A DNA stretch of 32,000 nt, taken from contig CP042461.1 in the NCBI GenBank assembly GCA_004563595.2, positions 1,200,001-1,232,000 on the forward strand, read 5' to 3'. Both the position numbers and the translations under genes were made by a program. Positions 5,491-32,000 of the stretch are shown here, in pieces. The notes beneath the pieces were generated by a model, which saw nothing but the letters and a program-made list of their open reading frames with translations, was not told the DNA's origin and made no database searches. How positions within the stretch are numbered: the stretch's first letter is position 1; every line of letters begins with the position of its first letter. The stretch comes from Candidatus Saccharimonadota bacterium. GTDB lineage: Bacteria; Patescibacteriota; Gracilibacteria; BD1-5; UBA6164.

Positions 5491-5656
5491 TTCTGGTACT
5501 GCTAAAAAATAATGTATATGAATAGTATATAAAAATTGAAATAAAATGCAATAATAGCAAAAATTATCCTCCTCCAATAAGTTTTTTTCTCTATTTTTTG
5601 AATTTTATTTCCATATATGGTACTCTTATTAATAATAATATTAACTTCTGACTCTC

Positions 5657-11023: not shown

Positions 11024-13912
11024 ATGTTTGACCCTTCAAAGCTTGATTTAGATTTAGAGAATCTTGATAGTAATAATGAAAAAAAGAAAGCTGAAATGGT
11101 GCAAAAACCAGAAATAAAATGATCAAATGAAACTACTTTAAAAAATAGTGATATATTAAAGGTGGAACAATGAGAAAAGATAGGAACTAATGAAGTCAAA
11201 GAACTAAAAAAATCAAAAAATATAACTCCCCCTGAAAAGAAAATACCAAGTGATTTATCAGATGAACAAGTAGTTGCTAAGAAAGAATATTGACCTGATG
11301 AGGCAGCTTATGAAAAAAAAGATGATAAAAGTTCAAAACCTGTAAATCAAGATATTTCCCCTAAACTTATTTTTGATGTAAATATATCATCTGTTACAGA
11401 TATCCTTACTATACTCGTTGAAAAAGAGTATGATTTTGTAGTGATTGAACCAACAGACGACCATGTAAAGATTAGCTATAGAAAAGATAAAATTGAAAAG
11501 GAAGTAAAGCTCATAAAATACCCTATTTATTCACAAATTTTAATAAAATCAAAGACTCTTACAAAGCTTAAAGTTGACGAATCATCAATAACTCAAGAAT
11601 GAAGTTGAGAAATAAGATTAAAAAACAAAAACTACAAACTTCTCAGTAAAACATCCCCTTCTAATCTATGAGAAAAACTATTCTTAAAAGTTGTAGAGGA
11701 TACGAACAAGCTCATAAAAAAAGTAACAAAAAAAACATCTCTTAACCAGATTTTATGATTCTTTACTGCAGGGATTTTCTCTCTCCTTCTTATTGGATGA
11801 GCATTTCTTGCTTTTATACTCTTCAACTCGAACAATGTAGCTGATCTTACATTCTTTAATAACCTGTGAGTTGATGTATGAAGTATAAAGGACTTTACAG
11901 CAAAACTTGTTGATGGAATATTTTTCTCAATTATCTTTATAGAAACTATTTTTCTTTTCATTTTTACTTTCAAAGCCCTCCTTACAAAAAAAGATTTTAA
12001 ACAAAAAAAGATTGCAAGAACAGTTTTATCGATATTTTTTCTTTTCCTTGTTCTTATTTCAAGTTTCATTTGGCTTACTCTGAGTACAAAAATAACGAGT
12101 CTAACAGGTTTAAACTACTGAAAAATAGAAACCTATGACAATTCAAAATTTTTAAGTAATATTTTTGATGAAAATTGATCAAAAATAAATTTAAATTCTA
12201 GGATTATAGGGCCTGTAACTATAAGATTTGATATAGAACCCTTTATCGACAAACTTATCGCTGATTGATTTACCCCTCAAAGTATTACATGGGTATTTGA
12301 AGATGAAGAAATTGAAAAACCAATTGAAGATTTCAAGCTCATGAAAGAATTTAATAAAAAAGGTCTATTTAATGTAAAACTACTTATCACTGGTTTAAAT
12401 TTAAAACAAGAAATCGAAACTTTAGAAAAAGAAATTGCAAAGGTAAATATAGCTAACATAGTGGAAATAAAGGAAAAAAAGATCGACAATGGAGGAAGTA
12501 TTTTTGATTTTGATGCAAGCGATCTTAAAAATTTATGAAAAATAAAATGGTACTATATTCCAGATCTCAATGGAAAAAGTGATAGTGAGCAAACTGAGCT
12601 TGTTAATAATGCATTAGCAAAAGAAGTATTAACTGGAGATCTATTCACCAGCAAAATTATTTTTGATCAGGAGGTTATTTTATGAATGAGAATAATTGAT
12701 ACAAATGATGAGTCAGATGGACTTGATAAAATATTTATTATATCAAAGGATGAATCTGATAATATCAATGGAGAAATTAGTTATACAAGGTGAATAGAAA
12801 ATGATTTAGAATATGAAATCAAAGTCAAAAATCCAGAAACAGCTTTTTGAAATTGATTTATAGAGGAGTTCAAATGGAAAATCTGAGATAAAGATATTAC
12901 AAAAGAGGTTGATTTAACAGATCTTGAAGGGTCCTCAACTATCAAATATGAATTTAAAGAATATGGAAAGCATAAGATTATCGTTTCCTTAACAGATTCT
13001 AGATGACAAGTAAAAGAACTCTCTACCATTATAGATATCCCTAAAAAGTTAAAATTAAGACAAGAACTCCTAATCAATAATGCTGGTGAAAAAATTGAAA
13101 ATCTAAACTATGAAAAACAATTAAACGAATATTATATAAATGAAATCTGAATACCAACTCAACTTGGACTTGATGCAAGGCTCATCAAAGCAGATAATCT
13201 CCTCTATACTCTAAAGAAAGTAGAGTGGGACTATAATTCAGATTGAGACATAGATGCGACATGAAAACTTGTACAATATGATATTAATTCAGAATGAAAC
13301 CATACCTTCACTGTTCATTACACATTTGTACATAGAAAGGTAGCAGATGATATAATAAAAATTACAGAAAAAATATATATAGAATCTGTCACGAAAGATG
13401 CCCAATTAAACCTGAACATCAAAAAAACAGGAAACTATGTCCCTATTATCGTTCAATTTGATGCTTCAACAAGTCAGGTAAAAAATGAAAATATTGTAAA
13501 ATTTATTTGGGATTATTGAGATTGAGTTGTTGAAGAAAGAGACTCTATCGTAAAATGACACAAATATACAACTCCTGGGGATTACGAAGTAAAACTTACT
13601 GTTGTAACAGAAAGTGGGGAAAAACATTCTATCTCTAAAAAACTTATCCTTATACCAAAACCTCAAGTAGTGCAAATATCATCAAGTATGAAAAAAGCAC
13701 CTATATGACAAGGTATAGACTTCTTATCTGATAAATCAGAAGGACAAATCACTTGATACTTCTGGGATTTCTGAGATGGATCAACTTCAATTGAGGCAAA
13801 TCCTACTCATTATTATACAAAAGCAGGTTCATATAAGATTAAACTCAAGTTAGACTTTGCCAATAATAACGTATTAGAAGATACTACTACAATAGATATA
13901 TTTGAAGAATAA
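11024..13912 (+). CDS. Membrane protein (962 aa): cytoplasmic PilB/GspE N2-like domain without ATPase core, 3 TM helices, extracellular PKD repeats
   Basis: The whole frame was hand-translated and contains only TGA interruptions.
- N-terminal region: ILTILVEKEYDFVVIEPTDDHVKISYRKDKIEKEV...KSKTLTKLKVDESSITQEGSGEIRLKNKNYKLLSKTSPSNLGEKLFLKV. This parallels the IHxEP...vRxRiDG...RiK...l...E.R.PQdG...RvSt.P...GEk.vlR segment that precedes the Walker A of T2SS/T4P ATPases. No Walker A follows it.
- TM helices: ILGFFTAGIFSLLLIGGAFLAFILF, LVDGIFFSIIFIETIFLFIFTF and VLSIFFLFLVLISSFIWLTL.
- PKD signatures: WDYGDGVVEERDSIVKGHKYTTPGDYEVKLTV and [28 protein letters not shown], plus about 3 degenerate copies. 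Confidence 0.75.
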
Positions 13913-13942
13913 AACTATTCACTCAACAAGGCAATAAAAAAC

Positions 13943-13971
13943 TCTCATCAATTCATGATGAGAATTTTTTT
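13943..13971 (+). terminator. Intrinsic terminator of the PKD-protein gene
   Basis: Stem tctcatca (13943-13950) / tgatgaga (13956-13963), 5-nt loop, followed by ATTTTTTT. Confidence 0.65.
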
Positions 13972-13995
13972 AGAGAAAATAACTAGCTTTAAATT

Positions 13996-14031
13996 AAAAA
14001 CAGATACTCATTTACGAGTATCTGTTTTTTT
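13996..14031 (-). terminator. Intrinsic terminator of giant gene A (A-run / T-run flanked, bidirectional shape)
   Basis: Stem cagatactc (14001-14009) / gagtatctg (14016-14024), flanked by AAAAA and TTTTTTT. It ends 4 nt from the TAA of gene A (14036-14038). A near-identical copy sits at 27530-27567. Confidence 0.75.
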
Positions 14032-16765
14032 GTAATTAAGACTTCAGACTTTTCAAGAAGATTAAATAAGTTTTTTCAATATTACTTTTTAATATCTTCA
14101 TCTTGATCTTGTAGTTAATTCCCTTCTCCTTGTTATTCTTTGTTAAGATATAAGAGTCTATATTCTTCAATAACTTTGTCTTGAAAAATAGTACCTTTAT
14201 ACTTTTCTCCTTCTTGTATTTAATAATAAGAGTATCTAATCTTGCTCAAAGTTTGTTCACTATATCATTCTCTGATAAGTATACTCACACACTACTTGCT
14301 GTTCCAGTTTCTGCTGTTACAGTTGTATTGGCTTCTCTTTTCAATGCTTTTGCAAACAGTTTGAACGTTGCGAGTATCTTCACTTTGTGTTCTCTTGTAC
14401 TTTGTTTCGCTTGTCTGGCTAATATATAATTCTCTACGTCTTTGATAAAAGTATTTCTGTATTCTATTACTTTCTCATCATTATCTTTCTGCTTTTGTTC
14501 GATTACTTTGTCGACTCTCTTCTCTATCAATTGAAGGATTGTCATTTCTGAATGGTATTTCTTCAATGTTCATCATCATGTACTGTCTGTACTACTTCAT
14601 GTTCATGTTCATCCACTATTCAACTCTACTACATCTTCTTCTCAACAGAGACTTCATAGTTTCCCATATTTACATGATACTTCGTCTTGGACATACCATT
14701 TGTAAGTCGTTGTTGATCATGGGATCAGTTTACATGTGAGTTGTTCGTCTTTACAGGTTGGAATATAACTTCATCAACCTCAACCTCCTCATCAGCCTCC
14801 TCAACCTCAGCTTGAACTTGAACTTCATCAGCTACTTGTACTTGCTGTGGCTACTGAAAAGTTAATCGTATAATCACTTACATTTTCATTTGAATCAGTG
14901 TCCATACATCTTACATAGTAAGCATAACTTGTTCAGTCTGTAAGTCATGTTATGTTTGCTGTATGTGTGATTCCTCATGTTGCTGTTGTAAATATGTCTG
15001 TCATTGACGCATATGTTGTATTTACTACTGTTGAGTATTTACATGTTCATATTTCATCTGTATTTAATGTCAGATTCACAGCTGTCGTTCCTGATACTTG
15101 TTCTCAATTTGGTAATCCATTTGAGAGTATTGGAGCGGTTACATCAACGAGAGTGGCTACTGAAAAGTTCAGTGTGTAATCTGTTGTTGTTTCATTACTT
15201 GATCCATCTATACATCTTACATAGTATGTGTGTGATGTTCCATTGGTAAGTCATGTTATATTTGCTGTATGTGTAATTCCTCAGGTTCCTGTTGTAAATA
15301 TGTCTGTCATTGATGCATATGTTGTATTTACTACCGTTGAGTATTTACAAGTAGAGTTTTCATTGGTATCTAATGTCAGATTCACAGCTGTTGTTCCTGA
15401 AGCTTGTTCTCCGTTTGGAAGTCCATTACTAAGGATTGGTGCTGTTGCATCAACTACGTTTGCTACTGAAAAATTCAGTACGTAATCTGATGTGTTTTCA
15501 TTACTTGATCCATCTATACATCTTACATAATACGTATATGATGCTCAGTCTGTAAGTCATGTTACATTTGTTGTATGACTTGTATTTCATGTCGTTGTAA
15601 AGGTATCTGTCATTGATGTATATGTTGTATTTACTACTGTTGAGTATTTACATGTTGATGCTTCATTGGTATCTAATGTTAGATTCACATTTGTTGTTCC
15701 TGAGGCTTGTTCTCCGTTTGGAAGTCCATTACTAAGGATCGGTGCTGTTGCATCAACTACGTTCGCTACTGAAAAGTTCAGTGTGTAATCTGTGGTTGTT
15801 TCATTATTTGATCCATCTATACATCTTACATAATACGTATATGATGTTCCATCTGTCAGTCATGTTACATTTGTAGAATGACTTGTATTTCATGTCGTTG
15901 TAAAGGTATCTGTCATTGATGCATACGTTGTATTTACTACTGTTGAGTATTTACATGTTGATGCTTCATTCGTATCTAGTGTCAGATTCACATTTGTTGT
16001 TCCTGAGGCTTGTTCTCAGTTTGGAAGTCCATTACTTAAAAATGGTGCTCATGTGTCTGGAGTATTTGCTACTGAGAAGTTTAATGTATAATCTGTTGTG
16101 GTTGCATTAGAGTTTCCATCCATACATCTTACATAATACGTATGTGATGTTCCATCTGTAAGTCATGTTATGTTGGTTGTATGGTTTGTATTTCATGTCG
16201 TTGTAAATGTGTTTCACATTGCTCAATATGATGTGTTTGCATTTGGAGAGTATCTACAAGTTGCATTCTCATCGGTATCTAATGTCAGATTTACATTTGT
16301 TGTTCCTGAGGCTTGCTCTCCACTTGGAGTTCCGTTCGATAGAATCGGTGCTGTTGTGTCTGGAGTATTTGCTACTGAGAAATTCAGTGTGTAGTCTGTT
16401 GTATTTACATTTGATACTGAGTCGATACATCTTACGTAGTACGTATATGATATTCCATCTATCAGTCATGTTATGTTGGTACTATGTGTTGTATTTCAGG
16501 TTGTTGTAAATGTATTCCCTATTCATGCGTATGTAGTATTTGAATTTATTCAATATTTACAGGTTGCATTTTCGTCTGTGTCTAATGTGAGATTCACATT
16601 TGTTGTTCCTGAGGCTTGTTCTCCACTTGGTGTTCCATTCGAAAGTACTGGAGCTGTTGTGTCTGGAGTTACGGCTACAGAAAAGTTTAATGTGTAATCT
16701 GCTGTTGTTGCATTACTTGATCCATCTATACATCTTACATAATACGTATGTGATGTTGCATCTGT
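13996..16765 (-). repeat. Segmental duplication, copy 1 (terminator + tail + linker + first ~6.3 Ig repeats of gene A)
   Basis: It is colinear with 27532-30310. The offset is 13536 bp, becoming 13545 after a 9-bp indel near 14815/28350. In the 60-nt blocks I compared I saw 0-2 mismatches per block. Identity collapses after about 16765/30310. Confidence 0.9.
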
Positions 16766-19700
16766 AAGTCCTCATATACTCACACTATGTGTTTGTGATC
16801 ATGTTGTAGCAAAGTTGTTTATCATTGATCCATAAGCTACACTTGCAGTTGTAGAATATTTACAAAATGCATCCTCATCTGTAGATATACTGAGTGTTAT
16901 ATTTGTTGTTCCTGCAGCTTGTTCTCCACTTGGGGTTCCGTTCGAAAGAATTGGAGCTGCAGTATCCGGTGTATTTGCTACAGAGAAATTGAGTGTGTAA
17001 TCTGCTGTGTTTTCATTACTTGATCCATCCATACATCTTACATAGTAAGTATATGATGTTGCATCTGTCAGTCATGTTATGTTGGTTGTATGACTTGTAT
17101 TTCATGTTGTTGCAAAGGTATTTATCATACTTGAATATGCTGTATTTGCACTTGTTGCATATCTACAGGTTGCATTTTCAACAGTGTCTAATGTCAGATT
17201 CACATTCGTTGTTCCTGAAGCTTGTTCTCCACTTGGTGTTCCATTCGAAAGTACTGGAGCTGTTGTGTCTGGAGTGTTCGCTACAGAAAAATTTAATGTG
17301 TAATCTGTTGTTGTTTCATTACTTGATCAGTCGATACATCTTACATAGTACGTATATGAATTCCCATCTGTTAATCATGTTACATTTGTAGAATGTGATG
17401 TTATTCATGTAGTAGTAAATGTATTTGTCATACTTGTGAATACTGTATTTGCAACTGTAGAGTATTTACAAGTTGCATTCTCATCTGTATCGAGTGAGAG
17501 ATTTATATTTGTTGTTCCTCAGGCTTGTTCTCCACTTGGAGTTCCGTTTGATAATACTGGAACCGTTATGTCTGTCGAAGTAGTTGATCCTGTTGAAAAT
17601 TTATAAGCAGCAATAACAGGTGGATTCGTACCAGTTGCTTGATTATAATCAGCTTTATAAATAGATACAAATAACGTACCTGATACAGGGTCGAATGTTC
17701 CTCCACTGATTTGATTCACTTTACTTATTTGGAAAGGAGCATCGAAAATACCAACATCATAAGGAGTCACATCATATGCATTCATTATACCATTTTTGAC
17801 ATCTACAAGATCATTCACATCATACATCCAATAATAAGGGTATGTATCATACTCATCTATTATATAGTGACCTTGAATACCAGTATGAGGAGAGACTCCA
17901 TATGACATACCACTTTCATGACCTCCTGACATTCACAGTACTAAATATGTACTTGTTCATGGAACTATCATACCAAATGATCCTTCTGATGCATGAGTCC
18001 ATAAATCATTTGTACCACTACTATTGTATAAGTCTTCTAGAGGTACTAGGCCGTTTGGTAAAGTATACTTTAACAACTCAGTTGTCGGAATATCACTAAT
18101 AGAAGCTGAATTATCAAGTACATCGGTAGCATTAAATGCAAATGCAGCAGGACCAACACTCGTACTGTATATCAATGCCCTTGCTGTACTATTAGTAAAA
18201 CCTCCTATATGTGTTCCACCAAGAGCACTTTGCCATTCAACAGGAGTAGGTGAGATCCATCCAGCCGCATACGATTGTCCCTCCATAGTGAAATAACCAT
18301 CAACTTCTGATGTAGCAAGGTTATTTGAATCACGAAGAATAAGTGTATTTGTTGAACTGTATGGACTTTGATCATAAAAATCATAATGATTTACGAGTAA
18401 GTGCCCATTTTCGGCATAGATACCATTTATACGACTTTGTCCATTAACTTTATGAACTGCTTTATCAAGTACATTCGTAAAGTTTTGAAGAGGTGCCTCA
18501 GCAGTATTTAGTGCTGTTATATCAGTACTATTTACAAGTTCAGGAATTGAAAATTCAGCAATAGACTTACCATATTCGTGTCCAGCAACAAATAATGAAT
18601 TATTATCAGCATTGAATCATATAGCTCCATATGAAAAACTAGCATTCGCATAGTCACCAACTCAAAAATTACCTGACGGTAAACGAAAAGCTCCCTGATA
18701 ACTAATGTTATCTAAAGTAAGGAGTGGGAACGTAGATCATGAAGATGAAGTTATCGAATCTGTAACGTTGAAATTTATAACAAAATCTAGATTATTTTCA
18801 TTACTTGATCCATCGATACATCTTACATAATATGTATATGATACTCCATTTGTAAGTCCTCATATACTCACACTATGTGATTGTGATCATGTTGTTGCAA
18901 ATGTATTTATCATTGATCCATACGCTGTGTCTGCAGTTGTTGAATATTTACAAAATGCATTCTCATCGGTAGAAACGCTCAGTGTTGTATTTGTTGTTCC
19001 TGATGCTTGTTCTCCTGTAGGAGTTCCATTTGAAAGTATTGGAGCTGTAGTATCAACGACAACAATAGTTCCATCAACATATTCATATGCTCAGATATCA
19101 TATGTCCCTTGTCTCATGATCCCATTTAAATCTCTTGCAATTGGAGCAAAGCTTGGTAAAGCTTTATCAAAAACAAGTGAATTTTTTCATGAATCAACTG
19201 CGGGGCTTCATGATTCTATGTTTAAATTATCACTCGATGTATTTACAAATAATGGATCTAGATTATCTACATTATTTACATCAGCAATACAATCAGTACA
19301 ACTATCGTAGTTTCCTATACCGTAATATAAATTATTTGAGAGGTTCACTGTTGATGCTTCTCATATGCTCATATAATGATTCCCTGTAGGACCTGGGAAA
19401 TCCGATGTCATGTGTACTATATTATTATCAAACTTTGTATCAAATGTTGTTCCAGCAGATGTAGAAAATCAAATATATCCTGAATTATAAAATGTATTAT
19501 TATAAAAATATCCTGCTCAATTAATACTATTATGTTTCGATGTTGGTGCATATCAAGTATGATATGAATCAGCAGCATCATAGGTTCCACAATTCAAAAT
19601 TAAATTATTATACACATATGTTGGTTCTGGGATAACTTCCCCAGGGTCATAACTCAAATCGTATACATTTAATGCAGTTGCTCTTTGATAATCACAACTT

Positions 19701-22700: not shown

Positions 22701-25528
22701 GTTCCTGCTTGCCATTGCCATCCTGGTTGCATAAGAACCCACGCACTAAAGTACACCTCATCATACTCTTGATCTAAGCTTTTCATCAAAATAGAATCCG
22801 AATAGTAATTTGCCTCGTCTGATGTATGATTCGATTCACTTGTTTTAATCCACGACTTTCCTTCCGTCCCTCTTTTTACATCACCTGAAATTCTTTGACC
22901 TGCCTTCTTTGTTGAATAACCATTATCAGGGTGCCAATTATCATCGGAATTACGATAAAATGTCCAATCTTGAGGTACATCATCATCACATATACCTGTT
23001 ACTCCTGCACCTGTACAGACAGTTGAAGTAGGAGAAGGATACCAATCTGGGTGATCATCAAAATTATCTTCAAAAAGAATATTTCCTCCACTCGATATAG
23101 GAGTACTTGCTACTGAAAAACTAATAGTATAGTCTGATGTATTTTCATTACTACTTTCATCTTCACATCTTACATAGTAGGTATATGAATTCCCATTTGT
23201 TAACCCTGCTATATTTACTGAATGTGACGTACTACTTATTACAATAAAAGTGTCACTCATTCATGCATAGGTTGCATTCGCTGTTGGTGAATATTTACAC
23301 GTCGCTGTTTCATCTGTTGAAACACTCAAAGTTGTATTTGTAGTTCCTGATGAAAGTTCTCCTGTTGGACCCCCATTTGATAATACGGGTGCGGTAGTAT
23401 CTGATGGTAATGCCCCTGACCCAATAACATAATTTATTGGTAATCTCCCATCTTTTGGTGATTCATCCCATAACGGATGTGATGAATCAATTGGTGTATA
23501 TGCCACAAAATCATCTATTGCATACGAAAGTTCTTTGTTATTTGAAGGGTCTGAAAAGAAATTGTTCCAGTTTCAGCCAATAGATACAAAATTAAATCCT
23601 AGATCTGCCGGTGATCATGCATATCTCCATTGAGCATCACTACGAGAATATTGTTCTACTCCATCAATCCACATACTAAATTCTCCATCAGCAATACCTG
23701 GAGTTGAATTATTCTTTACATAAAGTTCTAGTTTATGCCATGAACCATCTCACATTGTTTCTTTAAATGTTGGGTTCCCCGCAGGAGTATAATCTATTTC
23801 ACCGGTACATGTCATTCCCTCTGGACATACAAATACTGGATCATATCATATTTCATTATCGCAATAATAATTATCTTCTTGATTATCACACCTCGGTTCA
23901 TGATGACCTCTCCATCCCCATTGAGTAGAATTTTTTAATTGAAGCAAGTACATAGGTCCTGTATTTCCAGCACCTCAAAGTTGAAATACATTCACTCCAG
24001 TACCACTATCAACATGTCCCATACGTGTTAGTTTCAATTCTCCATTTCAAGGGCTTACCCATTCCCATTCTGCAGGAAATTTAATCCAAAAACTTGTATG
24101 GATTTCATCATAATCTTCTTCCAAAACTTTCATCAAGATTGCATCTGAATAATAGTTTGATTCACCAATTGAGTGGTCTGATTCACTTGATTTAATCCAT
24201 GCTTTTCAACTTGCTCATCTAAACTCATCACTTGAAATCCTTTGCCCATAGTTATGACTTGGATATCAAGTTGATGGATTCCATTGATCTGTATGACGAT
24301 ACCATGTCCAACCTAATGGAATATCATCATCAGGACATTTTTCAGCCCAGAATCATCCACACTCTGATCATGTTGGTGTCCATTCATTATGACCATCAAA
24401 ATCATCTTCAAAAAGAATATTTCCTCCGGTAGGTTCTACTAAATTTGCTACCGAAAAATTAATAAGGTAGTCTGATATATTTTCATTTGAATCTCCATCT
24501 ATACATCTGACATAGTATCTATATAAATTTCCATCTGTAAGTCATCACACACTTACAGTATGTGATTGAGCTCATGTAGTCGAAAAACTATTTGTCATTA
24601 ATCCATATGCTATGTTTGCAGTTGTTGAATATTTACAAAATGCATTTTCATCTGTTGAAACACTCAAAATTACATTTGTTGTTCCTGATGATTGCTCACC
24701 ACTTGGAGCTCCATTTGAAAGAATTGGAGCTATTGCAGGTGGAGTATATCATGAAGTAGCTATATCATCGTTATAATCAGTAAGTATCTCTGCCGCACTC
24801 AATGCTTCATTATATATTTTTAATTCATCAATAGCTCCATCAAAAGTACGTGATCCATCTGGATTCGCTCATATACTAACTGGCACTGCAGAACTTTGTG
24901 CCACTGGTCAATTTGCTCATGTAGATGATCCAGCTTCAACACCATTTACATAGATTCTCATCGTTGTTTGATCATATGTAGCTGTTATTTGTTGCCATAC
25001 TCAAGCTTGAAGTTCTACATTATTTCATACTAGCGTTACTGTCTCTTGATCAGATTTTAAACGAAAACGAGGATAATATTTTCCACCTTCATCCATAGTA
25101 CTTATCATCCAGTAATGATCAGCTCCAGAGGAGCTTGTTGTTTTTGAAATGATTCTTGCATCTGGAATACCAAAAGTATCTGGTTTTATCCATGCTGAAA
25201 TAGTAAGTCCATTTCATGTTATATCCATATTTCAAAGTGAAATATTTGTATTATTAAAATCAATAGCTGAGTTTATAAGACCTGGAGACCAAGCCCCATT
25301 TGTAATAGTTCATTGGCTCCCATAAACATCTCAAAGTACTGTTCAGGTATTTTCATCAAATGAATAATAATGTATTTGGCTTGCAGGGGCTGCATATATT
25401 AATTGGAAATTATATATATATAACAATAAAGTCATTGTTAGTAACACCAAAAATGATGATATTTTTTTTCTGTAAACAGATATTTGCATAATAAATAATC
25501 CTTTAAAAAATATTAGGTATATTAACAT
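14036..25528 (-). CDS. Giant secreted modular surface protein A (3830 aa): putative adhesin / polysaccharide-binding or -degrading protein
   Basis: All minus-strand ORF-track fragments share one frame (14285-14566, 16799-17032, 17519-17932, 17957-18286, 19553-19771, 21050-21433, 21890-22618, 22673-23260, 23261-23506, 25343-25528). I scanned every codon between them and found no TAA/TAG, only TGA.
- Start: the N-terminus is MLIYLIFFKGLFIMQISVYRKKISSFLVLLTMTLLLYIYNFQLIYAAPASQ. It looks like a signal peptide, and the true start may be the second ATG at 25489.
- Stop: TAA at 14036-14038. Confidence 0.85.
14851..17584 (-). repeat. Tandem array of 9 coding repeats (303-306 bp each, ~101-aa Ig-like units) in gene A
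   Basis: The FSVA-encoding marker (ctactga/ctacaga on the plus strand) recurs at 14851, 15157, 15463, 15766, 16069, 16372, 16675, 16978 and 17281. The unit consensus is DTTAPxLSNGxPSGEQxxGTTNxxLxxxTDExAxC(K/R)YSxxxxxxYxxMxxxFxxTGxxxHxxxxTGLTDGxxYxYYVRCxDxxGNxNxxDYxxxFSVA. Four more dispersed copies lie at about 18765-19060, 21745-22030, 23105-23400 and 24450-24745. Confidence 0.9.
17585..18740 (-). other. Domain of gene A: ~385-aa domain of unknown function, shared with giant gene B
   Basis: LTLDNISYQGAFRLPSGNFGVGDYANASFSYGAIGFNADNNSLFVAGHEYGKSIAEFSIP ... LGMSGGHESGMSYG ... YYWMYDVNDLVDVKNG ... IAAYKF. The C-terminal ~190 aa align to gene B residues encoded at 31432-32000 (GMSGMHESGGGYK...YIWLWDVNDFLDVKNG...ILAYKI). 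Confidence 0.5.
19078..20404 (-). other. Domain of gene A: right-handed parallel beta-helix (pectate-lyase fold)
   Basis: The entry motif is IYFVNSTDTFGDGSFTSPFSYKQA...IQPGDILYFRGGTYSE. It is followed by repeated N-rich rungs (NIVLGNAIHG, NNTFYNSGY, FDNNIVH, NLSNNLYYG). The characteristic ending is LDPLFVNTSSDNLNIESGSPAVDSG...ARDLNGIMRQGTYDIGAYEY. Confidence 0.7.
20405..20700 (-). other. Domain of gene A: IPT/TIG-like Ig domain
   Basis: GVAVTVWGKNFGSSRGSSYISVGGVDLTSDSDYEQWGD...ITFYLNSSMGVGDLDIKLHIGGQESNTLPFTIRDG follows the typical G..vti.G.NFG...g.v.vGG pattern. Confidence 0.55.
20822..21721 (-). other. Domain of gene A: beta-jelly-roll module 3
   Basis: Starts GGNILFEDNFDDHPDWYVADGSEECDG. 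Continues ...GGWHHLEIKVGMNSALGVADGTAQYWLDGVEE...FGIGGNTYNWFSD...WYAIDDVVVYTPID. Confidence 0.55.
22118..23092 (-). other. Domain of gene A: beta-jelly-roll module 2
   Basis: Starts GGNILFEDNFDDHPDWYPSP. Continues ...GEWHHIELRVKMNSTPGVEDGIFQFWLDGLLE...FISIGGNWNNWYSD...WYAVDDVVTYTPID. Confidence 0.55.
23485..24427 (-). other. Domain of gene A: beta-jelly-roll module 1 (ConA-like lectin/glucanase/polysaccharide-lyase-like)
   Basis: Starts GGNILFEDDFDGHNEW. Continues ...DGSWHKLELYVKNNSTPGIADGEFSMWIDGVEQ...FVSIGGNWNNFFSD...YAIDDFVAYTPID. It is homologous to modules 2 and 3. Confidence 0.55.
24785..25370 (-). other. Domain of gene A: LamG / concanavalin-A-like (Laminin_G_3-type)
   Basis: ISAWIKPDTFG...RIISK...VELQAGVWQQITATYDQTTMRIYVNGVEAG...VSIGANPDGSRTFDGAIDELKIYNEALSAAEIL is the classic Laminin_G_3 ending. 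Confidence 0.75.
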
Positions 25529-25532
25529 ATAA

Positions 25533-25562
25533 ATTTTATCATATTTTATAGTTTAGAGTCAA
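25533..25562 (-). promoter_or_regulatory. Candidate sigma70-type promoter for giant gene A
   Basis: The minus strand reads TTGACT (25562-25557), an 18-nt spacer, then TAAAAT (25538-25533). The -10 element ends 4 nt before ATG 25528, so either the mRNA is nearly leaderless or the real start is ATG 25489. Confidence 0.3.
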
Positions 25563-25572
25563 TAAAGATCTG

Positions 25573-25601
25573 TTGACAATGTAGCCATTAGTTTGAATAA
25601 T
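25573..25601 (+). promoter_or_regulatory. Candidate sigma70-type promoter for the pilin gene
   Basis: TTGACA (25573-25578), a 17-nt spacer, then AATAAT (25596-25601). This is about 105 nt upstream of ATG 25708. Confidence 0.35.
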
Positions 25602-25707
25602 ATTTTTTTATTACCAACAAGTAAAAAAAACTTTAAAATCATATTTTTTCAAGTATATTAAAAAAAAAGAAAATCTATTTTTATTCCTTTAAAATCATAT
25701 TACAAAG

Positions 25708-27516
25708 ATGAATATACAAAAAAAATGATTTACCCTTGTAGAACTTATCGTTGTTATCACAATACTTGCAATACTCTGAACCATAGCTTTTTTATCATTT
25801 CAATGATATAGTCGACAAGCAAGAGACAGTGTAAGAATATCTAATTATTCAAATATAAATACGACGCTTGAAGTCTATGAAGTACGAGCATGAAAATATC
25901 CAAAACCTGAAAACACTGACACCATTAGTTATGCAGGAGTAAATATTTGGCAGCAATGAGTGATATGAGAGAGAATACAATCTCTCCTAAGAATTGCATG
26001 AGATTTAAACGATACAAAATTTGGAAGTGAAATATCATACTCCGTAACTACTTCATGAAAAGATTATGAAATTGCTTGATTATTTGAATGATCTGAACTA
26101 ACCCAAAATGTTACAAATCAAACATATGCATCAACTGATGTGATTGCCTATGTCTGATGAAGTTATAACTCAAAATATTTAAAAACAAGTACTGGGTGAG
26201 AAACTCATATTATTTCCATCCCAAGTTTAATACTTAATACAAGGTGAGTTGATCAAGAAATCCAAGTCTGAGTTCAAAGTAATAATTTTGTTATAGGAAA
26301 TAAAAAAACTATTCCATGAAGTTTTATTTGATGAGATTTCAATTCCGAAGAAATAGTATTTACTTCTAGGTTGTTATACCAATGAACTGATTGTTCACCT
26401 CTCAATGAAATGGCCTATTATAATCTTGAAGTGGGGTTAAAACAATCTTACTGAACAGGTACTTTCCAAACTATAGAAAAATATGATCAATATCAAACAT
26501 GATATATTCATCCGTTCTATTTAGAAGAAAATGCATTACTACTTGGAAAAGAATTAAGATGTTCAAGTAACCCTATTTTTCTAAAGTCAGATGAGGTGTT
26601 ACCTCTTAGTTGTGTAAATGAAGATGGTACTTTTGAATGATTTTCATCTTGAGATCTTATAAGTGATAGTTGTTTACATACTTATGAATGAGATTCCGAT
26701 TGGATCGTTGAAAATTGAAGTTGAAACTGAGGGTGAAATGCTGTAAGAAACATTCCTGCTTTAGGAGGTAACAAAACAACATCACTTATATATAATATGG
26801 TCTTAAATAAGACGGCTAATCTTAAATTTGATTATAAGTTAGATTTTGATTATTGAGAAGTAACCTTTTATATTAATTGAGTAAAGTATGAGAAATGGGG
26901 GTATGAAACTTGAGGTATAACAAATGGAGTTGGTGCTTACCAAACCTATACTACGTCACTCCTACCACCATGACAATATGAATTTAAATTTGAAGCGTAT
27001 ACAAAATCACCTCCTAATGCATATGCAAATTTATATATAGATAATATTGTTATAGACGAGACTTGTATTGATGGATGACCTACATGTGGATGGACTCTAT
27101 GATTTGAAGATGGGAGCACTAATCCATATGATTTATTTTCTTTCTCTTGAGTTTCAACAACACCTTGGACAAGAATAACTGACTCTTCAGAATGAACTTA
27201 TGCTCTAAAAAATCCTATACTTGGACAAAACGAAAGTACATATTTAACTTATGAGAAGACTCTTACACAAACGGGGGCTCTCAACTTTGATTATAAATTG
27301 TCACAAAGCACTGCAATCGTTTACTTTTCTATTAATTGAGCTACAGACGATTCATGGTGATATTCAAAATCCTATACCTGATCCACAAACTATCAATCAT
27401 ACACCACCTCTAGCTTGCCCCCTTGAACATATCAATTTCAATTTCAAGTACGTACTCTGAGTTATAGTAATCCATATGCGAATTTTTATCTTGATAATAT
27501 AACTATAACTCCATAG
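25708..27516 (+). CDS. Large type IV pilin / pseudopilin-like protein (602 aa) with two C-terminal beta-sandwich (MAM/CBM-like) modules
   Basis: The whole frame was hand-translated and contains only TGA interruptions.
- N-terminus: MNIQKKGFTLVELIVVITILAILGTIAFLSF is a canonical prepilin signal (G|FTLxE, Glu5). The cleavage-site Gly is a TGA codon (25726-25728).
- C-terminus: two related modules end in ...YTTSLLPPGQYEFKFEAYTKSPPNAYANLYIDNIVID (about 26690-27075) and ...YTTSSLPPGTYQFQFQVRTLSYSNPYANFYLDNITIT (about 27076-27513). Confidence 0.85.
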
Positions 27517-27529
27517 TAAACAATCACAC

Positions 27530-27567
27530 AAAAAAACAGATACTCATTTGCGAGTATCTGTTTTTTT
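27530..27567. terminator. Bidirectional intrinsic terminator shared by the convergent pilin gene and giant gene B
   Basis: Stem cagatactc (27537-27545) / gagtatctg (27552-27560), flanked by an A-run and a T-run. It lies 14 nt after the pilin TAG and 4 nt before the gene B TAA. It is a paralog of the terminator at 13996-14031, with one loop substitution. Confidence 0.8.
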
Positions 27568-30310
27568 GTAATTAAGACTTCAGACTTTTCAAGAAGATTA
27601 AATAAGTTTTTTCAATATTACTTTTTAATATCTTCATCTTGATCTTGTAGTTAATTCCCTTCTCCTTGTTATTCTTTGTTAAGATATAAGAGTCTATATT
27701 TTTCAATAACTTTGTCTTGAAGAATAGTACCTTTATACTTTTCTCCTTCTTGTATTTAATAATAAGAGTATCTAATCTTGCTCAAAGTTTGTTCACTATA
27801 TCATTCTCTGATAAGTATACTCACACATTACTTGCTGTTCCAGTTTCTACTGTTACAGTTGTATTGGCTTCTCTTTTCAATGCTTTTGCAAAGAGTTTGA
27901 ACGTTGCCAGTATCTTCACTTTGTGTTCTCTTGTACTTTGTTTCGCTTGTCTGGCTAATATATAATTCTCTACGTCTTTGATAAAAGTATTTCTGTATTC
28001 TATTACTTTGTCATCATTATCTTTCTTCTTTTGTTCGATTACTTTGTCCACTCTCTTCTCTATCAATTGAAGGATTGTCATTTCTGAATGGTATTTCTTC
28101 AATGTTCATCATCATGTACTGTCTGTACTACTTCATGTTCATGTTCATCCACTATTCAACTCTACTACATCTTCTTCTCAACAGAGACTTCATAGTTTCC
28201 CATATTTACATGATACTTCGTCTTGTACATACCATTTGTACGTTGTTGTTGATCATGGAGTTAATTTACATGTGAGTTGTTCGTCTTTACAGGTTGGAAT
28301 ATAACTTCATCAACCTCAACCTCCTCATCAGCCTCCTCAACCTCAGCTTGAACTTCAGCCTGATGAACTTCATCAGCTATTTGTACTTGCTGTGGCTACT
28401 GAAAAGTTAATTGTATAGTCTGTTGTTGTTTCATTTGAATCAGTGTCCATACATCTTACATAGTAAGTGTGTGATGTTCCATCTGTCAGTCATGTTATGT
28501 TTGCTGTATGTGTGATTCCTCAGGTTGCTGTTGTAAATATGTCTGTCATTGATCCATATGTTGTATTTACTACTGTTGAGTATTTACATGTTCATATTTC
28601 ATCTGTATTTAATGTCAGATTCACAGCTGTTGTTCCTGATACTTGTTCTCAGTTTGGTAATCCATTTGAGAGTATTGGAGCGGTTACATCAACGAGAGTG
28701 GCTACTGAAAAGTTCAGTGTGTAATCTGTTGTTGTTTCATTACTTGATCCATCCATACATCTTACATAGTATGCATAACTTGTTCCGTTGGTAAGTCATG
28801 TAATATTTGCACTATGTGTGATTCCTCATGTTCCTGTTGTAAGTATGTCTGTCATTGACGCATATGTTGTATTTACTACCGTTGAGTATTTACATGTTCA
28901 TATTTCATCTGTATTTAGTGTCAGATTCACAGCTGTCGTTCCGGATACTTGTTCTCAGTTTGGTAATCCATTTGAGAGTATTGGAGCGGTTACATCAACG
29001 AGAGTGGCTACTGAAAAGTTCAGTACGTAATCTGTTGTTGTTTCGTTTGAACTTGTATCCATACATTTCACATAGTATGTATAACTTGTTCAGTCTATCA
29101 GTCATGTTACATTCGTAGAATGTCCTGTATTTCATGTCGTAGTAAATGTATCTGTCATTGATGCATACGTTGTATTTACTACGGTTGAGTATTTACATGT
29201 TCATGCTTCATTCGTATCTAATGTCAGATTCACGTTTGTTGTTCCTGAAGCTTGTTCTCCGTTTGGAAGTCCATTACTAAGGATCGGTGCTGTTGCATCA
29301 ACTACGTTCGCTACTGAAAAGTTCAGTGTGTAATCTGTGGTTGTTTCATTATTTGATCCATCTATACATCTTACATAATACGTATATGATGTTCCATCTG
29401 TCAGTCATGTTACATTTGTAGAATGACTTGTATTTCATGTCGTTGTAAAGGTATCTGTCATTGATGCATACGTTGTATTTACTACTGTTGAGTATTTACA
29501 TGTTGATGCTTCATTCGTATCTAGTGTCAGATTCACATTTGTTGTTCCTGAGGCTTGTTCTCAGTTTGGAAGTCCATTACTTAAAAATGGTGCTCATGTA
29601 TCTGGAGTATTGGCTACTGAGAAGTTTAATGTATAATCTGTTGTGGTTGCATTAGAGTTTCCATCCATACATCTTATATAATACGTATGTGATGTTCCAT
29701 CTGTAAGTCATGTTATGTTGGTTGTATGGTTTGTATTTCATGTCGTTGTAAATGTGTTTCACATTGCTCAATATGATGTATTTGCATTTGGAGAGTATCT
29801 ACATGTTGCATTTTCATCGGTATCGAGTATCAGATTCACGTTACTTGTTCCTGAGGCTTGTTCTCCACTTGGGGTTCCGTTCGAAAGAATCGGTGCTGTT
29901 GTGTCTGGAGTATTTGCTACTGAGAAATTCAGTGTGTAGTCTGTTGTATTTACATTTGATACTGAGTCGATACATCTTACGTAATACGTATATGATATTC
30001 CATCTATCAGTCATGTTATGTTGGTACTATGTGTTGTATTTCAGGTTGTTGTAAATGTATTCCCTATTCATGCGTATGTAGTATTTGAATTTATTCAATA
30101 TTTACAGGTTGCATTTTCGTCTGTGTCTAATGTGAGATTCACATTTGTTGTTCCTGAGGCTTGTTCTCCACTTGGTGTTCCGTTCGAAAGTACTGGAGCT
30201 GTTGTGTCTGGAGTTACGGCTACAGAAAAGTTTAATGTATAATCTGTTGTTGTTGCATTACTTGATCCATCTATACATCTTACATAATATGTATATGATG
30301 TTGCATCTGC
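27532..30310 (-). repeat. Segmental duplication, copy 2 (partner of 13996-16765)
   Basis: See copy 1. The plus-strand shadow ORFs 30018-30242 and 16473-16697 translate to identical 74-aa strings. Shadow ORFs 29461-29655 and 15916-16110 differ at 2 of 64 positions. Confidence 0.9.
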
Positions 30311-32000
30311 TAATCATGTTATGTTGGTTGTATGACTTGTATTTCAGGTTGTTGTAAAGGTATCTGTCATTGATGCATACGTTGTATTTACTGCTGTTGA
30401 GTATTTACAGGTTGCATTTTCATCTGTATCTAATGTCAGGTTCACATTCGTTGTTCCTGAGGCTTGTTCTCCACTTGGAGTTCAGTTCGAAAGAATTGGT
30501 GCCGTTGTGTCTGGAGTGTTCGCTACAGAAAAATTTAATGTGTAGTCTGTTGTGTTTTCATTACTTGATCAGTCGATACATCTTACATAATACGTATATG
30601 ATGTTGCATCTGTGAGTCATGTTATGTTGGTTGTATGACTTGTATTTCATGTCGTTGCAAAGGTATTTATCATACTTGCATATGCTGTATTTGCACTTGT
30701 TGAATATCTACAAGTAGAGTTCTCATCAGTATCTAATGTCAGGTTCACATTCGTTGTTCCTGATGCTTGTTCTCCACTTGGAGTTCCGTTCGAAAGAATT
30801 GGAGCTGTGGTATCTGGAGTGTTCGCTACTGAGAAACTTAATGTGTAATTTGTTGTGTTTACGTTTGATACGGTATCGATACATCTTACATAATATGTAT
30901 ATGATGTTGCATCTGTGAGTCATGTAATATTTGTAGTGTGTGTTGTATTCCCTGTTGTAGCAAAAGTGTTTATCATACTTGCATATGCTGTATTTGCACT
31001 TGTTGAATATCTACAAGTAGAGTTCTCATCAGTATCTAATGTCAGATTTACATTTGTTGTTCCTGATGTTTGTTCTCCACTAGGAGTTCCATTTGAAAGA
31101 ATCGGAGCTGTTGTATCTGGAGTGTTCGCTACTGAAAAATTGAGTGTGTAATCTATTGTTGTTTCATTCAAATACCCATCTATACATCTTACATAATATG
31201 TATATGAATTCCCTTCTGTTAATCATGTTACATTTGTAGAATGTGATGTATTTCACGTCGTAGTAAATGTATTTGTCATACTTGTGAATACTGTATTTGC
31301 AACGGTAGAATATTTACATGTTGCATTCTCATCTGTATCTAATGTGAGATTTACATTCGTTGTTCCTCAGGCTTGTTCTCCAGTTGGAGTTCCGTTTGAA
31401 AGTATAGCTGCTGTAGTATCTACTACCGCATTTATCTTGTAGGCAAGGATTACTGGTCAAGCAGCATGATTCTCTCCATCTGCTCTGTTTAAATTCAAAT
31501 ACAATGTGTTTGATACATCATCATATGATCAACCAGCAATTAAGTTTTTTCTTGTTCCATTGAGTCTATATTCAAATGGAGTATTAAATTTTCCATATTG
31601 GTATGGTTTTACTTCGTATGATTGTTTTAATCCATTTTTTACATCTAAGAAATCATTTACATCCCATAACCATATATAGTTATACATATCAAGTGGATCA
31701 TAGGCACATGGTCATCAACATGCTTCTGTTGCACCTGATTGAGTAATCTTGTATCATCCTCCACTTTCATGCATTCATGACATTCAGATCGTTGCATAGG
31801 TTCTGGTTCATGGAATTATAAATCCATATTCTGCTCAAGAATCTTCCGTCCATAAATCATTATCTCCATTTGCATTATATAGATCCCAGTCTCAATATTC
31901 TGCCCACCCTGAAGGTGTCTTTGCTAATACATTACTTAAACCAAAATCTAATAATTTAGTAGTCGGTATAGTTACATTTGTATCGGTTGCATTCAAAAGA
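27572..32000 (-). CDS. Giant surface protein B, C-terminal 1476 codons; the 5' part lies beyond the window
   Basis: It uses the same frame class as gene A. I scanned every codon from 27572 to 32000 and found no TAA/TAG. From the window edge the order is: the unknown-domain homolog (31432-32000), 10 Ig-like repeats, the Gly/Ser linker, the 4-Cys segment and the basic tail. The stop is TAA at 27572-27574. Confidence 0.85.
28396..31432 (-). repeat. Tandem array of 10 coding repeats (303-306 bp) in gene B
   Basis: The FSVA marker recurs at 28396, 28702, 29008, 29311, 29614, 29917, 30220, 30523, 30826 and 31129. Confidence 0.9.

Follow-up and report, generated by a model that had tools for sequence, protein, structure and literature searches.

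A conserved N2/PKD membrane protein gene beside a probable lineage-specific island of giant surface proteins and a modular pilin in a Gracilibacteria genome

The 21 kb between positions 11024 and 32000 of a 32,000-nucleotide stretch of DNA (hereafter the window) from Candidatus Gracilibacteria bacterium 28_42_T64 are best read as a conserved membrane protein gene of the housekeeping backbone lying beside an unlinked, lineage-specific and variable surface island, a reading to which we give a probability of roughly 0.6. The membrane protein gene (TM/PKD) would belong to a backbone ordered RNR-RmuC-RuvA-SecA-TM/PKD-...-RNaseHII/QueH, and the island, composed of two of at least three paralogous giant genes and one modular pilin gene, would have been inserted directly after it, with giants, pilin and TM/PKD protein as independently transcribed and independently inherited components. 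All these parts probably serve contact with the surface of a host, a prey or a substrate. The initial annotation had proposed an attachment locus working as one integrated system; all four genes encode cell-surface proteins, which could plausibly act in attachment, but the integration did not stand.

Translation with table 11 yields just 7 ORFs longer than 150 aa, and reading through TGA yields long ORFs. In the SecA motifs EMKT-G-E-G-KT and TNMA-G-R-G-TD the invariant glycines are encoded by TGA, so TGA is read as Gly (code 25), as the initial annotation had assumed. The ORFs also agree with the order and strands that it gave for the four surface genes: the TM/PKD gene (11024-13912, +, 962 aa), giant A (14036-25528, -, 3830 aa), a modular type IV pilin (25708-27516, +, 602 aa; QFR39677.1) and giant B (27572 to beyond 32000, -), of which at least 1475 aa, the C-terminal part, lie in the window, its N-terminus falling outside and its head being represented by about 196 aa only. 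No further credible gene lies among these four in 11024-32000. In public databases the proteins appear with TGA translated as Trp, which lowers apparent identity, and two matches of 97% and 93% identity, considered as a related strain, were rejected because they are the same organism translated in that way.

The TM/PKD protein starts with a disordered segment (residues 1-114), followed by a cytoplasmic N2-like domain related to PilB/GspE (residues 120-226; 11381-11701, +), three TM helices placed by the predicted model at about residues 240-268, 285-320 and 326-358, and an Ig-like/PKD ectodomain (residues 369-962) modelled as a chain of beta-sandwich domains. A profile of residues 108-245 matched GspE (1p9r, E=3.6e-5) and PilB (3jc8, E=2.2e-4) in the PDB, with 3jc8, 5zfr and 5tsg at E=2-4e-4, and the NCBIfam models of GspE, PilB and ComGA align to residues 102-244. 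PKD_4 scores 111.4 bits in two stretches (cutoff 27), so that the N2-like and PKD domains named by the initial annotation are well founded. Pfam T2SSE reaches 24.7 bits against a cutoff of 24.9, covering only profile positions 12-117 of 370, and the RecA-like ATPase domain, with its Walker A/B, Asp and His boxes, is absent from the protein, which continues beyond residue 240 with TM helices and then beta-sandwiches. The protein is thus outside the GspE/PilB/PilT ATPase family and is a homolog of N2 alone. In the hexamers formed by those ATPases (1p9r, 3jc8, 5tsg) the N2 domain, homologous to residues ~120-226 here, is packed onto the ATPase domain; in the TM/PKD protein, by contrast, it has no Walker domain and leads into the three TM helices and the Ig/PKD chain. 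About 100 full-length homologs, 40-55% identical, all come from Gracilibacteria, and a literature search found no description of a fusion of an N2-like domain with three TM helices and an Ig/PKD chain; this family of orphan-N2 membrane proteins is uncharacterised. The Pam pili of Saccharimonadia and Microgenomatia (bioRxiv 10.64898/2026.03.03.709456), which are likewise surface filaments specific to CPR bacteria and have Ig-like folds, were considered as relatives and rejected as unrelated, the sole link being a non-significant match of NCBIfam PamR to the PKD region (E=0.015, 14 bits against a cutoff of 300).

Part of the evidence for our reading comes from the relatives. In four loci obtained by exact-protein look-up (L003, L005, L006 and L012) the TM/PKD ortholog sits inside the conserved RNR-RmuC-RuvA-SecA backbone, and in a fifth (L004) its surroundings differ. 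Within 10 kb downstream of this gene all five lack any ORF longer than 1200 aa, so the conserved synteny to which the initial annotation had tied its integrated system is missing (0/5). Synteny was limited to these five loci because a scan of genome contigs with the TM-family alignment, dominated by generic PKD matches from Bacteroidota and others, gave no usable Gracilibacteria set. The TM proteins of the relatives are 44-78% identical, and these genomes may be too distant to keep a young system. In the closest relative (L012) nucleotide homology ends at the TM stop codon (window 13912), beyond which lie a lipoprotein-like gene and one for a pilin whose head is fibrinogen-like.

The four genes alternate in strand. 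A terminator-like hairpin with a T-run follows the TM gene (13943-13971, +), and a bidirectional terminator hairpin lies 3' of giant A (13996-14029), inside a segment duplicated with 99% identity at 27527-27570, where the copy of this hairpin, also bidirectional, lies 3' of giant B. Hairpins therefore end the TM gene and both giants; no hairpin was listed after the pilin gene, which runs towards the bidirectional hairpin of giant B. Giant A and the pilin diverge from a 179-bp intergenic region (25529-25707) with back-to-back promoter-like sites, TTGACA-17-AATAAT for the pilin (25573-25601, +) and TTGACT-18-TAAAAT for giant A (25562-25533, -).

Giant A is a mosaic of modules on the reverse strand. 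Translation probably begins at M14 (25489), so that the protein opens with a signal-peptide-like segment, and this is followed by a LamG (Laminin_G_3) domain (24785-25252, -; 110 bits against a cutoff of 27.6) and by three ConA-like modules, here called X, of about 335 aa each (20756-24427, -; aa 368-703, 814-1159 and 1271-1591), about 50% identical to one another and with FN3-like repeats in between. Next comes a module (19055-20731, -; aa 1600-2158) that combines an IPT-like part with what may be a right-handed beta-helix; N-x-I-x-N-N motifs are visible in the putative helix, which matches NCBIfam choice_anch_Q (28.7 bits, cutoff 25) and, weakly, DUF5123. The adjacent domain, called Y (17594-18736, -; aa 2265-2645), belongs to a widespread, uncharacterised family whose members are secreted and about 420 aa long (999 clusters at E<1e-3), and the gene neighbourhood of one stand-alone member was uninformative. 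The stalk (14834-17563, -; Pur_ac_phosph_N, E=1.9e-24) is built from an FN3-like unit of 101 aa (303 nt) that occurs 9 times in tandem, with two conserved Cys per copy, and the C-terminal anchor (14039-14833, -) comprises a linker of Gly/Ser type, a knot with four Cys and a basic, putatively helical domain (about 177 aa, pI 9.9), with no TM segment, LPXTG motif or Pfam hit. The giants are probably exported through the N-terminal signal peptide and held at the wall by the basic helical domain, and the disulfide-containing stalk would project outward a head made of modules of glycan-binding or glycan-cleaving type (LamG, three ConA-like, putative beta-helix and Y). Harvesting of sugars is an unlikely role for such modules, because the organism has no glycolysis, pentose phosphate or Entner-Doudoroff pathway (PMC6851277).

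The same anchor and stalk recur in giant B (anchor, 27575-28378, -; stalk of 10 repeats, 28379-31411, -), followed by a partial Y-type domain (31412-32000, -). At the nucleotide level 13996-17551 aligns with 27532-31096 with 91.5% identity; protein identity is 87-100% over stalk and anchor, with patches of 100%, and falls abruptly to 37-47% in the adjacent head domain. The homogenised stalk and anchor of the initial annotation are thus borne out, and a third copy of the anchor, 85% identical in protein, exists elsewhere in the genome. From this pattern of identity, recombination and gene conversion may keep stalks and anchors nearly identical while heads diverge. A word-indexed protein search with the anchor (244 aa) returned no relative, even the self-match being missing, and GTDB genome contigs and JGI metagenome contigs, from both of which the source genome is apparently absent, held none; since no anchor homolog was found, the giant family looks lineage-restricted.

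Each part of the island is of a known kind, modular pilins or giant CPR surface proteins. Large extracellular proteins were noted in the paper on the source genome itself (PMC6851277), and the giant surface proteins of CPR predators or episymbionts, for which host recognition and attachment have been proposed, are exemplified by Vampirococcus lugosii (PMC8080830), with which the giants share multi-kb genes, a secreted or membrane location and PKD/FN3/LamG-type interaction domains. Unlike them, the present giants have a stalk and an anchor of their own, the latter with no homolog found in our searches, occur in at least three copies and appear to keep their stalks in concert. Their layout resembles that of MSCRAMM/LPXTG adhesins (N-terminal signal peptide, distal binding region, repeat stalk and C-terminal wall-proximal region), and their repeats resemble those of surface protein paralogs homogenised by recombination. 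In contrast to Gram-positive adhesins, however, they have no LPXTG, no SLH/LysM/GW-type domain (Pfam) and no RTX, and the basic helical domain at the C-terminus is novel. The motif LP.[TSA]G is absent from giants A and B and peak hydrophobicity of the anchor is 0.69, which places them outside the LPXTG/sortase class; GGXGXD is absent as well, which places them outside the RTX class (LapA/SiiE type T1SS), and giant A carries an N-terminal signal-peptide-like segment in place of the C-terminal T1SS signal of RTX adhesins. Identity with the hypervariable gene of PTD repeats described for this genome (PMC6851277) was considered and rejected, no PTD repeat being present here.

The pilin has a class III signal peptide, MNIQKKG/FTLVELIVV (G-1, hydrophobic +1, E+5), and matches Pfam N_methyl (30.9 bits, cutoff 21.2) and TIGR02532 (29.8, cutoff 16.3). 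Its predicted model, of low to moderate confidence, has residues 10-61 in a helix, then beta strands and, with low confidence, two tandem C-terminal jelly-roll (beta-sandwich) modules (aa 332-450 and 488-601), for which Foldseek returned tandem CBM51, SGBP-B and the meprin MAM domain, a resemblance of CBM/MAM/CUB type; the carbohydrate-binding-like modules of the initial annotation are in agreement with this model. On the model the protein would be a modular pilin in the sense of Raynaud et al. 2021, with non-pilin modules grafted at the C-terminus. A published survey counted over 1,200 modular pilins in 264 architectures; examples of the kind are Streptococcus sanguinis PilB (vWA module) and PilC (ConA-like lectin module) (PMC8179133, PMC9934059). 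Such pilins are expected at the pilus tip, where they would mediate adhesion; by likeness of sequence and model, including the class III signal peptide with E5 and an N-terminal pilin module with grafted modules, this one would display its two lectin-like jelly-rolls there as well. Unlike PilB and PilC, it has an unusually large pilin module (about 300 aa), its jelly-rolls are in tandem and without a strong family match, and it comes from a very large Gracilibacteria radiation with swapped heads, in which more than 500 pilins share the N-terminal ~200 aa and carry interchangeable heads. A paralog of 750 aa (pilin-750), 71% identical, has three jelly-rolls instead of two and matches X25_BaPul_like (E=2.4e-7) and AMPK1_CBM.

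That all four proteins form one attachment machine, in which the TM/PKD protein couples the pilus motor outward, the pilin targets a host glycan and the giants join the pili at the contact zone, is very improbable. Contiguity of four surface proteins, the N2-like domain that ties the TM protein to type IV pilus ATPases, the divergent promoter region common to giant A and the pilin, and the recurrence of a pilin-giant pair at a second locus would all fit such a machine, but the TM/PKD gene is kept with neither adjacent giants nor a large pilin in 5/5 relatives, strands alternate with hairpins closing three of the genes, and the only other full-length relative of the pilin outside its paralogs (P0111, 32% identical) has no giant nearby. 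Moreover, a pilin near a large surface gene is unsurprising, because the genome encodes about 15 large pilins (PMC6851277). An unlikely alternative is a two-gene module of a large modular pilin convergent with an anchor-bearing giant, duplicated in the genome and with the TM/PKD gene as a mere neighbour. The second locus (L009) shows this arrangement, pilin-750 being convergent with the third anchor copy (giant C), as the 602-aa pilin is with giant B, and homology between the two loci starts inside the pilin 3' end (window 27481 = L009 12217). A plain segmental duplication could explain this pairing, however, and the anchor of giant A faces the TM gene and not a pilin; besides P0111, a pilin-like ORF was found near only 5 of the 79 stalk-type repeat loci in metagenomes (a crude test). 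Some association of pilins with giants or with this site is possible, because of the convergence of pilin-750 with anchor C and the modular pilin at the same position in the closest relative.

The contiguity itself could be in part an assembly artefact, with the curated genome joining the wrong head to the anchor next to the TM gene, which we regard as quite improbable. The three giants share a stalk/anchor of ~3 kb, so a wrong pairing of head and anchor may have occurred, and gene adjacency here may hinge on short-read assembly across these repeats. Indeed, mismatches between independent short-read assemblies and the window are confined to the stalk/anchor repeats, all within 14000-16500, which makes the head-to-anchor pairing uncertain; the draft contig NODE_16 links pilin-750 and anchor C with the stalk and head of giant A, and NODE_17 stops 1.9 kb into the TM-adjacent anchor. 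Against an artefact, paired reads were used in manual curation of the genome and GC skew served as a check (PMC6851277), and the junctions of TM gene with anchor (L001) and of pilin with anchor B (L007) are each backed by independent contigs. With regard to function, it is distinctly unlikely that the giants are mainly polysaccharide depolymerases that breach a host capsule, EPS or cell wall, and not adhesins. The giant proteins of putative predators have been tied to cell-wall degradation (bioRxiv 10.1101/2023.11.21.568195). The X modules of giant A have weak matches to PL14 (PF21294; 18.3 bits, cutoff 27) and to 3keto-disac_hyd (also sub-threshold or weak), and the parallel beta-helix-like repeats with their choice_anch_Q match also suggest such an activity. 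All the enzyme-family matches are nevertheless below curated cutoffs, so that the X modules fall outside polysaccharide lyase family 14, and no catalytic residues were identified; sequence and profile searches of the PDB with beta-helix, X and Y modules gave nothing useful, and PHROGs gave zero matches. ConA-like and LamG folds are, furthermore, equally often lectins.

The preferred reading, of a backbone gene beside a variable island, sets apart two things, a core membrane protein that is found across the class and has a pilus-motor-like domain, and attachment hardware specific to the strain, and it makes the core protein a good experimental target. Gracilibacteria are uncultivated. Host range is expected to be set by loci of this kind, in which giants with concerted stalks and diverging heads stand together with a pilin that varies in its number of lectin-like modules. 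It is a long shot that the conserved N2-3TM-PKD protein is an unrecognised accessory of Gracilibacteria type IV pili and the site downstream of it a landing pad for attachment cassettes; were it so, the orphan N2 would bind the PilB/PilT hexamer or compete for a place in it, coupling contact at the extracellular Ig/PKD chain to pilus extension or retraction, and the interchangeable cassettes would be the giants here and, in the closest relative, the pilin whose head is fibrinogen-like.

Under translation table 11, only seven ORFs longer than 150 aa are present in the window, and long ORFs become dense once TGA is read as a sense codon. In the SecA gene, TGA codons fall at the invariant glycines of the motifs EMKT-G-E-G-KT and TNMA-G-R-G-TD, and TGA therefore codes for glycine (code 25). 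ORF calls made in this way confirmed the gene order and strands proposed in the initial annotation: a transmembrane protein of 962 aa (TM/PKD; 11024-13912, + strand), giant A (14036-25528, - strand, 3830 aa), a 602-aa pilin (pilin-602; 25708-27516, + strand) and giant B (27572 to beyond 32000, - strand), of which at least 1475 aa lie inside the window. The region 5' of the TM/PKD gene contains two RNR genes, RmuC, RuvA, a 634-aa gene, SecA and a 139-aa gene (the 634-aa and 139-aa products are unassigned). The TM/PKD sequence matches a Candidatus Gracilibacteria bacterium 28_42_T64 protein at 100% identity, and the closed genome of this organism was described by Sieber et al. 2019 (PMC6851277); the hypervariable PTD-repeat gene of that paper is a separate locus, the PTD repeat being absent here.

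By the synteny test that the initial annotation itself named, the five-part arrangement was not found in relatives. TM/PKD orthologs with 44-78% identity were located on five contigs (L003, L004, L005, L006 and L012, the last from the closest relative), and in none of the loci examined was there an ORF longer than 1200 aa within 10 kb of the ortholog, so that the giants are not its neighbours there. Three of these loci (L003, L005 and L006) keep the order RNR-RmuC-RuvA-SecA-small gene-TM/PKD, followed by small genes, RNaseHII/QueH, a radical SAM gene, LspA, a small pilin, YbeY and PrgI/TraC-like genes; in L004 the ortholog lies in another gene context. The L012 backbone is 80-88% identical to the window at the nucleotide level, with homology stopping at 13912, the TM/PKD stop codon, after which L012 carries, in this order, a 323-aa lipoprotein-like gene, a pilin gene (439 aa, fibrinogen-like head), HSP90 and RNaseHII/QueH. 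Backbone synteny without the giants, together with this break, indicates that the TM/PKD gene belongs to the core backbone; the giants and pilin-602 form a variable island at the site that follows it. Two further observations concern the same loci. The 634-aa ORF between RuvA and SecA (5645-7558, + strand), which has no Pfam match, has a 662-aa counterpart in the closest relative (L012:2454-4442) and is missing from L003 and L006, suggesting a further lineage-specific insertion in the backbone. In L003, L005 and L006, the type IV secretion-like PrgI-like and TraC-like genes and the small N_methyl pilin lie about 8-10 kb downstream of TM/PKD.

An operon across the four genes is impossible, because their strands alternate (TM/PKD and giant A are convergent, giant A and the pilin divergent, the pilin and giant B convergent) and terminator-like hairpins are found 3' of the TM/PKD gene, giant A and giant B, the bidirectional hairpin of giant B facing the 3' end of the pilin gene. 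Promoter-like sites stand back to back in the 179-bp intergenic region between giant A and the pilin. A link between pilin and giant is seen on draft contigs of the same organism, where a third copy of the anchor (the basic C-terminal domain of the giants), with 85% protein identity to that of giant A, is convergent with pilin-750, a 750-aa paralogous pilin. The "large pilin convergent with giant" unit is thus present twice, which may reflect either function or plain segmental duplication; homology of the pilin-750 locus to the window starts within the pilin 3' end. On this contig (L009, or NODE_16; L009:7037-22253), a 434-aa T2SSE-family ATPase (- strand) and a 316-aa gene without assignment (+ strand) accompany pilin-750 (+ strand), and the anchor copy beside it is more diverged, the contig continuing into the giant A stalk, the array of 101-aa repeats.

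The draft contigs share 99.8-99.9% nucleotide identity with the window, and their proteins look 93-97% identical only because TGA was read as Trp. Public collections also store Gracilibacteria proteins (P0002 and P0109) under both TGA=Trp and TGA=Gly; with such mixed translation one and the same protein passes for a "relative" of 93-97% identity, and W replaces the correct G in family consensus sequences. All mismatches of the independent drafts against the curated window (12, 30 and 132 in the comparisons with L001, L007 and L009) fall within 14000-16500, in the stalk/anchor repeats, with none in the heads, the pilin, the TM/PKD gene or the backbone. L009 passes from the third anchor into the giant A stalk. 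The mismatches represent either chimeric assembly of the three paralogous stalks or genuine variants that arose by recombination within the population, and head-to-anchor pairing is not firmly fixed by short reads.

The surface/attachment theme of the initial annotation is plausible and consistent with the giant proteins and pili reported for CPR predators (PMC8080830), whereas its integrated five-part system found no support. The parts of the region belong to kinds already known, and the pieces most worth pursuing are the membrane protein family with the orphan N2 domain and the giants, with their diverging heads and homogenised stalks.

The pilin belongs with the modular pilins, a class already described (PMC8179133, PMC9934059), and 15 "GspG" proteins (mean 528 aa) were previously recorded in this genome (PMC6851277). 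It has a canonical prepilin motif at the N-terminus, and its N-terminal ~200 aa are common to more than 500 Gracilibacteria pilins, whose C-terminal heads vary (FISUMP, InlB-B, fibrinogen-like, LamG, LRR/BspA, discoidin, SBBP). The low-confidence model of the pilin (pLDDT 57) contains two beta-sandwich modules (pLDDT 65-80), for which Foldseek returned tandem CBM51, SGBP-B, Vip3A, ColG and the meprin MAM domain at low TM-scores. Pilin-750 is 71% identical to it, has three such modules and matches X25_BaPul_like and AMPK1_CBM. The only non-paralogous full-length relative of pilin-602 is flanked by genes for EamA and DNA ligase.

Giant A probably starts at M14, giving a signal-peptide-like N-terminus, followed by Laminin_G_3 (110 bits), three units of an FN3-like repeat and a ConA-like X module (~335 aa), an IPT-like part with a putative beta-helix module (aa 1600-2158), a further FN3-like repeat, the Y domain (~380 aa), nine tandem 101-aa repeats and, finally, a Gly-rich linker, a 4-Cys knot and a 177-aa basic helical domain. 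Enzyme-type matches (PL14, 18.3 bits; 3keto-disac_hyd; DUF5123) were all under curated cutoffs, and the modules of the giants gave no match against PDB sequences and PHROGs. The C-terminal domain (pI 9.9) has no TM segment, LPXTG motif, RTX motif or family match.

The two giants share the segment 13996-17551/27532-31096 at 91.5% nucleotide identity, which begins 43 nt past their stop codons and takes in the bidirectional terminator hairpin. The stalk comprises 9 repeats in giant A and 10 in giant B, and the two arrays are largely in register apart from repeat indels; certain repeat pairs are 100% identical. Protein identity is 87-100% over stalk and anchor and 37-47% in the Y domain, dropping abruptly at giant A residue 2654, a pattern that fits gene conversion limited to stalk and anchor. 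Of the "two swappable heads on a homogenised stalk/anchor" proposed initially, the homogenised part holds, and different heads are seen in part, ~196 aa of giant B's head lying in the window. The stalk-type FN3-like repeat (motif YYVRC.D) also occurs in 79 metagenomic loci (L093-L171; 33-61% identity, GC 0.30-0.70) and is thus a widespread module, not specific to Gracilibacteria. When 219 aa of the Y domain served as query, 999 representative clusters were matched, from a family without Pfam model or PDB relative composed mostly of stand-alone secreted proteins (~420 aa); in larger proteins the domain is joined to fn3, PKD, LamG, Big_9 and cadherin-like domains. The family of this domain (17594-18736 in giant A; proteins P0231-P0380) comprises about 1000 clusters at 50% identity, at least some members coming from outside Gracilibacteria, and its strongly conserved motifs are GAFR.P, AAGWISPIP.EWQ and SGGH.SG.GYK.

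The description of the TM protein as a PilB-N2/PKD membrane protein was borne out by several analyses. Pfam detects PKD_4 (111 bits) and T2SSE just under its cutoff (24.7 versus 24.9 bits), the latter confined to profile positions 12-117. A profile of residues 108-245 built on 22 family members matched GspE (1p9r, E=3.6e-5) and PilB (3jc8, 5zfr and 5tsg, E=2-4e-4) in the PDB, in each case at the N2 domain, and the NCBIfam GspE, PilB and ComGA models fall on the same stretch. The AlphaFold model (pLDDT 75) comprises a disordered segment (1-114), an alpha/beta domain (120-226), TM helices at 240-268, 285-320 and 326-358 (three are also predicted by hydropathy) and a chain of beta-sandwich domains (369-960), for which Foldseek returned generic Ig-like chains. 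The protein has no ATPase domain. In a Candidatus Peregrinibacteria locus (GW2011_GWF2_39_17; L015:5343-13578), three neighbouring genes code for a 319-aa T4SS_pilin/TrbC-like protein, a 1571-aa fusion of a T4SS-pilin-like N-terminus with long PKD arrays, and a 754-aa protein that combines PKD arrays with a membrane segment at its N-terminus but lacks a T4SS_pilin match; the PKD-array region of this locus is 23% identical to the TM-plus-ectodomain part of the TM protein.
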